Shown here piece after piece: positions 16,130 to 59,190 of a stretch of 64,000 bases of DNA (its first letter is position 1; every line of letters starts with the position of its first letter). A program made the position numbers and the translations under genes. The DNA is taken from contig OX597841.1 in assembly GCA_951406725.2 (NCBI GenBank), forward strand, positions 16,864,001 to 16,928,000, read 5' to 3'. The stretch comes from Octopus vulgaris. Its lineage: Eukaryota. The notes under the pieces are model-generated. The model had not been told where the DNA came from. It ran no database searches and saw only the letters and a list, made by a program, of their open reading frames with translations.

Positions 16130-16160
<31 letters not shown>

Positions 16161-16161
<1 letters not shown>

Positions 16162-16320
16162 CGACGGGTTTCTTTCAGTTTCCGTCTACCAAATCCACTC
16201 ACAAGGCTTTGGTCGGCCCGAGGCTATAGTAGAAGACACTTGCCCAAGGTGCCACGCAGTGGGACTGAACCCGGAACCATGTGGTTGGTAAGCAAGCTAC
16301 TTACCACACAGCCACTCCTG
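16161..16320 (-). mobile_element. SINE family 1, 5' half
   Basis: Near-consensus head and core, between (TA)n runs. Confidence 0.9.
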
Positions 16321-16351
<31 letters not shown>

Positions 16352-16362
16352 TATATAATAAT

Positions 16363-16737
16363 ATAAATATAAGAGAGTGTTCACTATATTGATCACTCTA
16401 GCACCAGTTAATCCAAGAGGTTTCAACCACGAAAAATACATGTTTCCCATGAAAGCCGGTACGACTGTTAGCTCACACGGACAGGGCAAATAAAAAATAA
16501 CAAAAATACAGATTATCTTGGGACAATTGTTTCGCTATTAATGAATTAAATGTAATATTACTTACAGTAATCCATTTGTAGCTCTTCAGCCAATTTTTGT
16601 TATTTTTTATTTGCCCTGTCCGTGTGAGCTAACAGTCGTACCGGCTTTCATGGGAAACATGTATTTTTCGTGGTTGAAACCTCTTGGATTAACTGGTGCT
16701 AGAGTGATCAATATAGTGAACACTCTCTTATATTTAT
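16363..16737. repeat. perfect 145-bp inverted repeat with 85-bp spacer (Penelope-like inverted pLTR structure)
   Basis: 16363-16507 is the reverse complement of 16593-16737, with no mismatch found by eye. Confidence 0.92.
16518..16593 (-). ncRNA. type I hammerhead ribozyme, canonical core
   Basis: UUGG-CUGAAGA-GCUA[AAUGGAUUA/UAAUUCAUU, UGUAA/UUACA hairpin]UAGC-GAAA-CAAUUG-UC^CCAA; predicted cut between 16522 and 16521. Confidence 0.85.
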
Positions 16738-18234
16738 TTTGTGAAAATATTATAATATGTTATAAAATATTATAATAATCCAGGTTTCTCGTAGCACTAG
16801 GCCACTTGGTGTGGAATAAATATACTATTAAATTAGTATCTAATTCTCTCACCCTTATTAATTAATTATATACATATATATATATATATATCAGGTGGGG
16901 TGTATAATGATGTAAGTCTTGACGTAGTAGCAACTGCAACAATATCTACTTCTACTACTACTACTACTATTTCACCAATATCCCCACCCCCAACACCGCG
17001 CCCAGCTGGCAACAACGACAGCCAATAAAGACTGCAACAGGAACAACAACAACAACACCAATAGCCACAACTATTCGCAAATACTACACCGTTATTATCG
17101 ACAACAACGCAACTATCACCGCCACTACCACCACCACTACCACAATCAACAACAAGCAAGAAAAAAAAAACGAGATCTACCACGTGATTACAAACTAAGA
17201 GTCACAAATCAGACAGCCGCCATGATGCAGTCGAGAAAATGGCCGGTTTTCCTGTAATTGGGCGTCCATTATGGGAAATAATCGTGTCGCTTGATGGGAC
17301 AGTATGGATTAGTTGCGCCTATTTCGTGGTGTGTGTTTGTATGAGGTTGTGTACGTGCGCATGCGTATTCAGTGCTGTTTGTTACATGACGTTCTTTTGT
17401 TTCTGTTGATGTGTCTACGGGGTTTGGGTAGGGGTGTTGTGTTTGCGTCTGCGTTGAATTTGCTGGTTGTGTATATGTTCATGTGTATACAGTAAGGGCA
17501 AGAGAGAGAGAGGTAGAGAGCGAGAGAGTGAGAGAGAGTGCTAAAGAGGGAGAGCTTGAGAGAGTCAGAGAAAATGAGAGAGAGAGAGCTTGAGAGACAG
17601 AGAAAGAGAAAGGGAGAGAGAAAGTGAGAGAGAGTGCTAACGAGGGAGAACTTGAGAGTCAGAGAAAATGAGAGAGAGAGAGCTAGAGAGGCAGAGAAAG
17701 AGAAGGGAGAGCTAGAAGAAGAGAGAATGTGTGTGACAGAGTGTCTGTGTGTGTATGTCAGAGAGAGAATGTGTGTGTGTGTGTGTGAGTGTTAGAGTGT
17801 TAGAGAACGAGAACGAGTGTGTGAGAGAGTGCATGTGTATATGTGTGTGTCTGCGTCTGTATGCGTGTGTCTGCGTGTATGTATGTGTGTCTGTGTGTGT
17901 GTGTGTGTATGTGTGAATCGTTATTTAACAATGTGTTTATACGACAGTACACAGACGTGTCTATGTGTATGTGATTGCGTATGTATGTGTGTGTGTGTAT
18001 AGGTGTCAATTTAATGGTATGTTTATACAGCAGTGTATAAGTGTATGCATGTGTGTGTGTGTGTATGAGTTTGTGTGTGTGTGTGAACGGTTTAGTTTGC
18101 AATGTGTTTATACGGCAGTACATAGTCGCATGTATATGTGTGAGTACGTCTGTGTGTGTGCGTGTACTTGTGTGTGGTTGCGTATGTGTGTTCGTGCGGG
18201 CTCCAATTTCATGGTATGTTTATACTACAGTGTA

Positions 18235-18444: not shown

Positions 18445-18594
18445 ATGTGGTAGGTAGCTTGTTTACCAACCACATGGTTCCGGGTTCAGTCCCACTGCGT
18501 GGCACCTTGGGCAAGTGTCTTCTACTAGAGCCTCGGGCTGACCAAAGCTTTGTGAGTGGATTTGGTAGACGGAAACTGAAAGAAGCCCGTCGAG

Positions 18595-18643
<49 letters not shown>

Positions 18644-47926: not shown

Positions 47927-48606
47927 AACTTATAAATAAGGGTAAACGAAAAAATTTCTAATACCAAATACGTCGAAATTGAACATATTGTCCATAACCA
48001 TATATCTTTTCACAATACGCACGCTACTCGAAAAATAAAACCCAACAGAAATTTCCAAAAAATTCCATTATTACCATATCGGACTGATTTCAGGGTTAGT
48101 TCGCGAGAACCCTCCCTTCATCAGTGATAAATGTGGCAAAGAAATAAATGAGATACTTACTCAAACCCATGGAAGAAGCAAAACACTAAGTCATGAGCAC
48201 AATTAAGTACCCCAAATACATCCAAAATAGAAATACTCCAGCCCATTCAAGACACGTGCGATTTGAACTGAGGCTCTCATAGAATGAGAGAGTCCGAAAG
48301 TGAACGCCATTAAATTTATGTTTATTGTAGGATAAATTTTTTTCGAAAAAAATTTTTATCAATGGCCAGCATATTAAAAAATAGCTTTAAAGGTTAAATT
48401 TATAAATAACTTATAAATAATGGCAAACGAAAAAATTTCTAATGCCAAATATGCCGAAAATTGGACATATTGTCCATAACCATATAATTTTTCACAATAC
48501 GCACGCTACTCGAAAAAAAGGCCAACAGGAATTTCCAAAAAATTCCATTATTACCATATCGGACCGATTTCAGGGTTAGTTCATAAGAACCCTCCCTTCG
48601 TCAGTG
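47927..48606 (-). mobile_element. retrozyme/PLE-like element: two about 200-bp direct repeats, each carrying an HHR, period 480 nt
   Basis: 47927-48126 matches 48408-48606; non-coding structured middle. Confidence 0.75.
48077..48129 (-). ncRNA. type I hammerhead ribozyme motif
   Basis: UAUCA-CUGAUGA-AGGG AG GGUUC UCGC GAACU AA CCCU-GAAA-UCAG-UC^CGAUA. Confidence 0.72.
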
Positions 48607-58764: not shown

Positions 58765-59190
58765 TTATATGAGAGGAAAAAGCAAAAGGCAGAACGAATT
58801 TCTCGAGTCATTGAGAACAATATCATTAGGACAAGGTGAATTTTGAAGTCTTACAGCCGTTTCATAGATAACCGAAGTGGTAGATTAGCATGTCCACGCA
58901 CTGGGTATTCCGTCATTAGAGACAAGGTATGAAAGTACTAGAGCAGGGAAATTTACAGTTTACGAGGAATAGAGAGGACGAAAATAGTAAATAGAAGGAA
59001 ATAAAGTAAATGTAGAAAATGTACCTTGTCTCTGATGATGGAATGCTTACGGCTTGGACACGCTAACCTACCACTTGGCTTATCCCAGAAACGGCTGTAA
59101 GACTTCAAATTCTCCTTACCCTAATTAAATTGTTCTAAATGAGTTGAGATACCCCGTTCTACTTTGTTTTTTGCTTATTCCTCTAATATT
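58765..59190. mobile_element. imperfect inverted repeat element, arms about 165 bp, each with an HHR motif
   Basis: 58765-58930 vs 59021-59190, e.g. TTTGAAGTCTTACAGCCGTTTC / GAAACGGCTGTAAGACTTCAAA. Confidence 0.8.
59028..59103 (+). ncRNA. type I hammerhead ribozyme, canonical core, long stem II insert
   Basis: GUCU-CUGAUGA-UGG..CCA-GAAA-CGGCUG-UA^AGAC; predicted cut after 59099. Confidence 0.75.

Follow-up and report, generated by a model that had tools for sequence, protein, structure and literature searches.

The insertion in the window

The window (the whole analysed stretch of 64,000 nucleotides of Octopus vulgaris DNA) contains an insertion of 508 bp at 16363-16870, the middle of which is a perfect hairpin: two inverted-repeat arms of 145 bp pair with zero mismatches (predicted duplex energy about -279 kcal/mol) around a spacer of 85 nt. 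All of the inserted DNA is 100% identical to pieces of a repeat unit of 534 bp, whose positions are given below with the prefix q. The features are as follows.

16363..16593, minus strand: A arm, unit q1-231, 100% identical to the 534-bp unit; its RNA sense is the minus strand, with the 3' end outward at 16363, the fixed site A
16593..16870, plus strand: B arm, unit q145 back to q1 and then q534-402, 100% identical to the unit; its RNA sense is the plus strand, with the 3' end outward at 16870, the fixed site B
16363..16507, no strand: left arm of the perfect 145-bp inverted repeat
16593..16737, no strand: right arm of the perfect 145-bp inverted repeat
16508..16592, minus strand: 85-nt spacer, unit q146-230, copied in the A arm only
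16518..16593, minus strand: type I hammerhead, called from core motif and family covariation, with predicted cleavage
16593..16593, no strand: head-to-head (5'-to-5') junction with an overlap of 1 nt
16738..16870, plus strand: 133-nt "tail" separating sites A and B; only one of the two arms has it
16340..16357, plus strand: likely target-site duplication, left copy, (TA)n with one C
16867..16884, plus strand: likely target-site duplication, right copy

The hairpin arises where the two arms overlap, and its loop is the stretch copied in one arm only. The initial annotation had described the arms and the spacer correctly, and was also right in deducing a recent event from the identity of the arms; however, its extent (16363 to 16737) was too short, as the right arm continues to 16870 with 133 more bases of the element. 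As to its proposal that inverted pLTRs are a known product of the insertion of Penelope-like elements (PLEs), the inverted PLE-type product stands, whereas the arms do not belong to a coding PLE as its pLTRs: in the 89 stretches that we mapped in the genome, the repeat is never joined to a PLE ORF, and the unit has stops in all six frames.

The duplication measures up to 18 nt, or 14 nt excluding the bases common to the element end, and its boundaries are uncertain, since they lie within the (TA)n repeat; five extra AT bases (16358-16362) follow its left copy. The insertion is bracketed by a SINE-like inverted pair (16130-16308 and 18446-18624; 179 nt, 96% complementary, 2137 nt apart), and the (TA)n that it targeted is where the left SINE-like copy ends.

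The 534-bp repeat and its hammerhead ribozyme

The repeat unit measures 534/535 bp, has a GC content of 33.5% (179/534) and occurs in tandem, with one hammerhead ribozyme (HHR) per unit. It is non-coding in all six frames, and an endless ORF on a circle of 178 codons was likewise excluded by stops in every frame. An exact 28-mer of the unit has 412 matches in the genome (2.8 Gb), compared with 0 for the reversed control, and copies that are 100% identical were found by genome search on many contigs; the HHR pattern, which includes the sister subfamilies, gives 821 matches. There are several haplotypes in the family, and its tandem loci are homogeneous. The fold predicted for the circular unit has an energy of -151.6 kcal/mol (z=-7.2 vs 40 shuffles). 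Judged from its sequence, the repeat is a young, ORF-less, retrozyme-like element. Among the variants confined to one unit, G>A in the RNA sense (genomic C>T) dominates (25/61); the template-level variants lack this bias.

In the window copy the HHR core lies on the minus strand, with CUGAAGA at 16589-16583 and GAAA at 16533-16530, and the type I order (CUGANGA / GAAA / NUH) is found. The stem II region comprises 49 nt (16582-16534), stem III is formed by the palindromic ACAAUUGU at 16530-16523 (a 2-bp stem), and the GUC has its C17 at 16522, which places the predicted cut at 16522/16521. The motif in the spacer, with its canonical core, long stem II, palindromic stem III and cut site, had been recognized as such in the initial annotation. 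Its description as an intact ribozyme has to be corrected, since the junction at 16593 takes away the distal 5' strand of stem I and reduces this stem to 4 bp, compared with 5-7 bp plus a distal helix in full units.

The HHR was called from the core motif and covariation, not from Rfam, where no hammerhead family was among the 9 matches at E<=10 for 16340-16800 and the search over the whole window was swamped by microsatellite-like miRNA models. In a set of 13 hand-picked related rows from about five subfamilies, both sides of stem I change in 5/7 pairs, which was reached in 0/500 shuffles, and slid controls gave far lower values; the closing pairs of stems II and III were preset by the search pattern and do not count as evidence. 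The covariation of stem I is such that the motif is, so far as sequence comparison can tell, under selection in the family.

In folding predictions for monomers, adopting the active fold costs 5.6-7.3 kcal/mol relative to the ensemble in full units, and 7.1 kcal/mol in the window hairpin; a duplex of two stem III palindromes has -6.4 kcal/mol. The palindromic 2-bp stem III points to possible cleavage in the form of dimers, as was reported for the HHRs of axolotl retrozymes (PMC7229834). The window copy, being single and truncated in stem I, is predicted to cleave poorly. Other hammerhead-core-like motifs occur in the window at 48604, 48124 and 54084 (minus strand) and at 59032 and 4699 (plus strand); the pair at 48.1/48.6 kb lies within a direct repeat of 480 bp that is pLTR-like.

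None of the sequencing runs is recorded as RNA; parts of the unit are covered by contigs of four runs for which RNA is a guess, and three of the four leave uncovered the unique flank 17168-17480, where a DNA run has a depth of 42; this contrast is not counted as expression, since a repeat of several hundred copies could give it by DNA carry-over. The joint 16508/16593 ("opposite strands") in the run contigs turned out to be ordinary unit and not the window junction. In run X6 there is a loose end of 16 nt at window position 16649, which we take to be a cDNA template-switch adapter, hinting that X6 is cDNA holding the unit.

Two-armed insertions and their template

The mapped sample (89 stretches, L031-L119) holds 304 of the 412 exact 28-mer matches, so that 26% of the matches lie outside it; 49 stretches were selected for having an A end, and 33 were taken from the 28-mer matches regardless of end. 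L064 and L065 are parts of one rearranged locus and were excluded from the locus counts, which leaves 87 loci. At the place concerned (L063-L065, G000:C4 160.91-160.93 Mb) the insertion is present again 14 kb away in an error-rich second copy, and the haplotypes are mixed, the locus being either rearranged or mis-assembled; in L042 the host flanks mirror each other, due to an inverted duplication or to an assembly artefact.

Two arms are present in 58 of the 87 loci, in all 58 of them head-to-head with the RNA 3' ends outward. One arm ends at site A (q532-1) and the other at site B (q402-417), with the 133-nt tail between these sites, in 55 of the 58, while A/A and B/B pairs are absent (0 each) and three loci have one end unresolved. 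The A+B combination recurs in 18/20 two-armed loci of the subset taken regardless of end (33 stretches) and, by eye, in 10/13 two-armed loci of the sister subfamilies (20 stretches, L150-L169, 70-99% identity), the other three being unresolved. The remaining 29 of the 87 loci have one arm only, and a short B-end remnant is found in 7/24 of the A-type ones.

The arms abut (TA)n directly: such flanks are found on both sides in 46/58 loci and on one or both sides in 56/58. Target duplications, read by eye from 52 printed sites, have 14-18 nt at the seven informative ones, the window included. A non-TA insertion site with a clean duplication of 15 bp (L039:4003-5499) is the best marker of the cut geometry. 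As for the junctions between arms, 40/58 are blunt or overlapping and 18/58 carry inserts; overlaps of at least 2 nt occur in 22 of these 40 vs 18% at random, and short duplications were seen at the junctions of L044, L096 and L116. By analogy with described elements, two-armed A+B insertions in (TA)n with short duplications are a PLE footprint. At some priming sites (the left end of L070, the inner ends of L071 and L094, and window 16358-16362) there are repeats of 4-6 nt, in up to about seven copies, and these added short repeats resemble telomerase-like re-priming.

The two arms of a locus carry the same markers. Their haplotypes agree in 43/43 informative loci (mean of 15.0 and maximum of 24 in 5000 permutations), and rare variants defined in one arm are present in the other in 14/14 cases (12 loci). 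Of these 14 variants, 13 are absent from the arms of all other sampled loci, and the shared rare variants fill nearly all tandem units of both arms, with 55 other variants confined to a single unit; sharing between arms is partial in L063 and L075. Alternatively, the shared variants could come from a homogeneous source array beyond the 304/412 sampled matches, or from conversion between arms. Half of the 110 arms are longer than one unit, the longest having 5266 bp, the B arm runs past site A in 44/55 cases, and 3/116 inner ends fall no more than 5 nt from the HHR cut, which is chance level (2.4 expected). Cleaved linear monomers were therefore rejected as the template, in view of the many arms that are longer than a unit and of the inner ends, which ignore the cut. 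Finally, the two arms stop within 10 nt of a common unit position in 10/58 loci, with 2.3 expected (P=8e-5; permutation P=0.0003), and this co-stopping modulo 534 is seen even where the arms differ in length by whole units (L040, L096, L082). One circle read by two polymerases that are able to catch each other would explain the shared variants, the long arms and the co-stops.

We therefore consider it probable that the hairpin is the centre of a two-armed insertion, made by a borrowed PLE-type enzyme which copied one RNA, likely a circular one, from both cut strands of a TA repeat. As to the more specific proposal, that each insertion records the simultaneous work of two PLE polymerases, which started at two fixed sites on one self-cleaved RNA circle and often stopped on meeting each other, we lean slightly in its favor. 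What is directly seen (the unit, the head-to-head arms, the A and B ends, the (TA)n targets with their duplications, the shared variants and the scattered junctions) might be connected in the following way. Tandem transcripts would cleave themselves, likely as HHR dimers, and the cleaved units would be ligated into circles of 534 nt. A dimer of the PLE RT/GIY-YIG protein would bind near the 133-nt tail and nick both target strands about 15 bp apart, after which each 3'-OH would prime at one of the two sites, A or B. Both polymerases would travel round one common circle over variable lengths, and the two cDNA ends would be joined via microhomology and then filled in. Any overlap between the two arms would give a perfect palindrome, and at the window locus the extra stretch of one arm would have happened to hold the ribozyme, minus most of its stem I.

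In L1 twin priming, too, both target strands prime on one RNA, which results in an inversion with microhomology at the junction. There, however, the position of the second site varies and the pieces have little overlap, whereas in the octopus both sites are fixed and the arms overlap over many units.

It is possible, but in our opinion rather unlikely, that a PLE made the two-armed insertions with no circle involved, using as templates linear multimeric transcripts, one molecule or two, that came from a homogeneous tandem locus. The homogeneity of the tandem loci and the 26% of exact matches outside the sample would agree with such templates, as would the fact that insertion by the anole PLE in vitro did not need HHR cleavage (PMC11167929). 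Yet 13 of the 14 rare variants are absent from the other sampled loci, although almost every unit of both arms carries them; the arms co-stop modulo 534 despite whole-unit differences; and the covariation of stem I speaks for selection on the ribozyme.

Single priming followed by fold-back of the DNA, so that the second arm is copied from the first by self-priming, would account both for the shared variants and for the excess of near-zero spacers, and it is in line with the short duplications at some junctions (L044, L096, L116) and with the interpretation of palindromes at PLE inverted junctions as self-priming (PMC3846280). We regard it as very unlikely, since either arm may be much the longer one (A 117 and B 977 in L051; A 5266 and B 192 in L091), and each arm ends exactly at its own site with the duplication, while a copy of the first arm has no reason to halt at the other site.

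With two polymerases copying one circle as the preferred reading, the ribozyme in the hairpin loop is incidental, as the junctions are scattered: it is a selected rare draw, a by-product of the variable junction. Junction positions do not cluster across loci (P=0.91), nor is there significant clustering at the HHR cut or at q226-240. The HHR core lies inside the in-register loop in 14/49 loci, about one third being expected with random ends, while a loop of at most 100 nt with the whole core is expected at 0.4% of junctions and was seen in 1/58, namely at the window locus, which was itself selected. Hence the idea first put forward for this locus, that a dsRNA hairpin whose loop cleaves itself is selected or active and feeds Dicer or ADAR, appears highly improbable and is left without support: a read-through transcript would indeed give the 145-bp perfect duplex, with longer duplexes from many other loci, but the loop content follows the random junctions, stem I is truncated, and an A-to-I imprint, sought in the template-level variants, is absent (A>G 6/26, U>C 7). 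That the hairpin is an artefact of assembly or read fold-back can hardly be credited. It is true that the arms are perfect, that the window junction was not seen bridged in the run contigs among the pieces listed, that the flanks of L042 mirror each other and that L063-L065 give the impression of mis-assembly or rearrangement; but the window flanks are unrelated except for the short duplication, the window arms differ by the tail, and 55 loci obey one rule with different junctions.

Related elements and the candidate enzyme

The octopus repeat resembles the metazoan non-LTR retrozymes described from coral, mussel and axolotl (Cervera and de la Peña, 2020, PMC7229834) in its AT-rich non-coding units, which stand in tandem and have one type I HHR each with a short palindromic helix III, in the highly paired circle that is predicted and in duplications of more than 4 bp. 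It differs in the size of the unit, 534 nt vs the 150-450 bp reported there. For metazoan retrozymes, rolling-circle reverse transcription by PLE machinery was proposed (PMC7229834, PMC7761336). The words "inverted", "opposite", "octopus", "cephalopod" and "microsatellite" occur 0 times in the main text of PMC7229834, and in the main texts of the open-access literature we found no description of two-armed retrozyme insertions from a single template or single circle with fixed A/B ends and variants common to both arms.

On the side of PLEs, the known signature is a 5'-truncated inverted copy together with a tail at one end (PMC8557442, PMC3846280). In vitro, the protein purified from the anole PLE cuts both strands and extends them, with two start sites that bound the tail (PMC11167929). 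The octopus insertions agree with what these three papers describe in the head-to-head inverted copy, the tail at one end, the microsatellite targets, the duplications of the 8-10-bp class and the two RT start sites. In contrast to PLEs as described there, the octopus unit is without an ORF, its tail has 133 nt vs 30-40, the A+B rule is nearly strict (55/58), and the arms are multimers of a short unit, whose markers trace the template. By these analogies, the octopus repeat would behave as metazoan non-LTR retrozymes do and be moved by PLE machinery, with a unit size and a tail outside the reported ranges.

Animal retrozymes were recently argued to be non-autonomous derivatives of PLEs (Li, Clavereau and Pollet, bioRxiv 10.64898/2026.07.22.740005), the evidence presented being co-occurrence and pLTR homology in vertebrates, with local tandem amplification invoked. 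The octopus arrays, unlike those, appear to arise during insertion, and a homologous PLE was not found; the words "tail" and "octopus" occur 0 times in the text of the preprint.

The octopus insertions bear on two questions, namely whether retrozyme circles are reverse-transcribed into the genome and why the insertions of PLEs have an inverted copy and, at one end, a tail. If the proposed mechanism is true, the circRNA is a true retrotransposition intermediate, and the PLE signature of an inverted repeat with one tail is explained as twin priming by a dimer. A young family with marker variants makes both questions testable, by way of the A+B rule, the private variants shared between arms and the co-stopping. 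The hairpin with a ribozyme loop matters little in itself; such insertions seed many perfect inverted repeats genome-wide.

As for the enzyme, no ORF with RT and GIY-YIG adjoins the unit in L031-L119 or L150-L169. A PLE-like fragment beside L039 was rejected as the driver: it belongs to an old family, whose next copies have 84% identity or lower. A GIY-YIG scan of the genome gave 6136 candidates, of which 150 were scored, and revealed a young intact PLE family (L170-L185) with copies mostly 97-99% identical. One of them (L183:1618-5318) has a frame of 781 aa with RT and GIY-YIG, and the family has an overlapping upstream frame of 479 aa with no Pfam match. Its copies end in (TA)n and have an optional tail of about 40 nt, which in both of the two-armed copies observed (L175, L177) is on one arm only. 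This candidate family has no sequence in common with the unit (best BLAST E=0.17), and its tail has 40 vs 133 nt; nor was homology of the unit to a PLE pLTR found in 20 GIY-YIG loci of a few families. Nevertheless, with its intact frame, (TA)n ends and one-arm tail of about 40 nt, the young family indicates that suitable machinery exists in the genome. Near its end it carries, by eye, a degenerate hammerhead-like motif.
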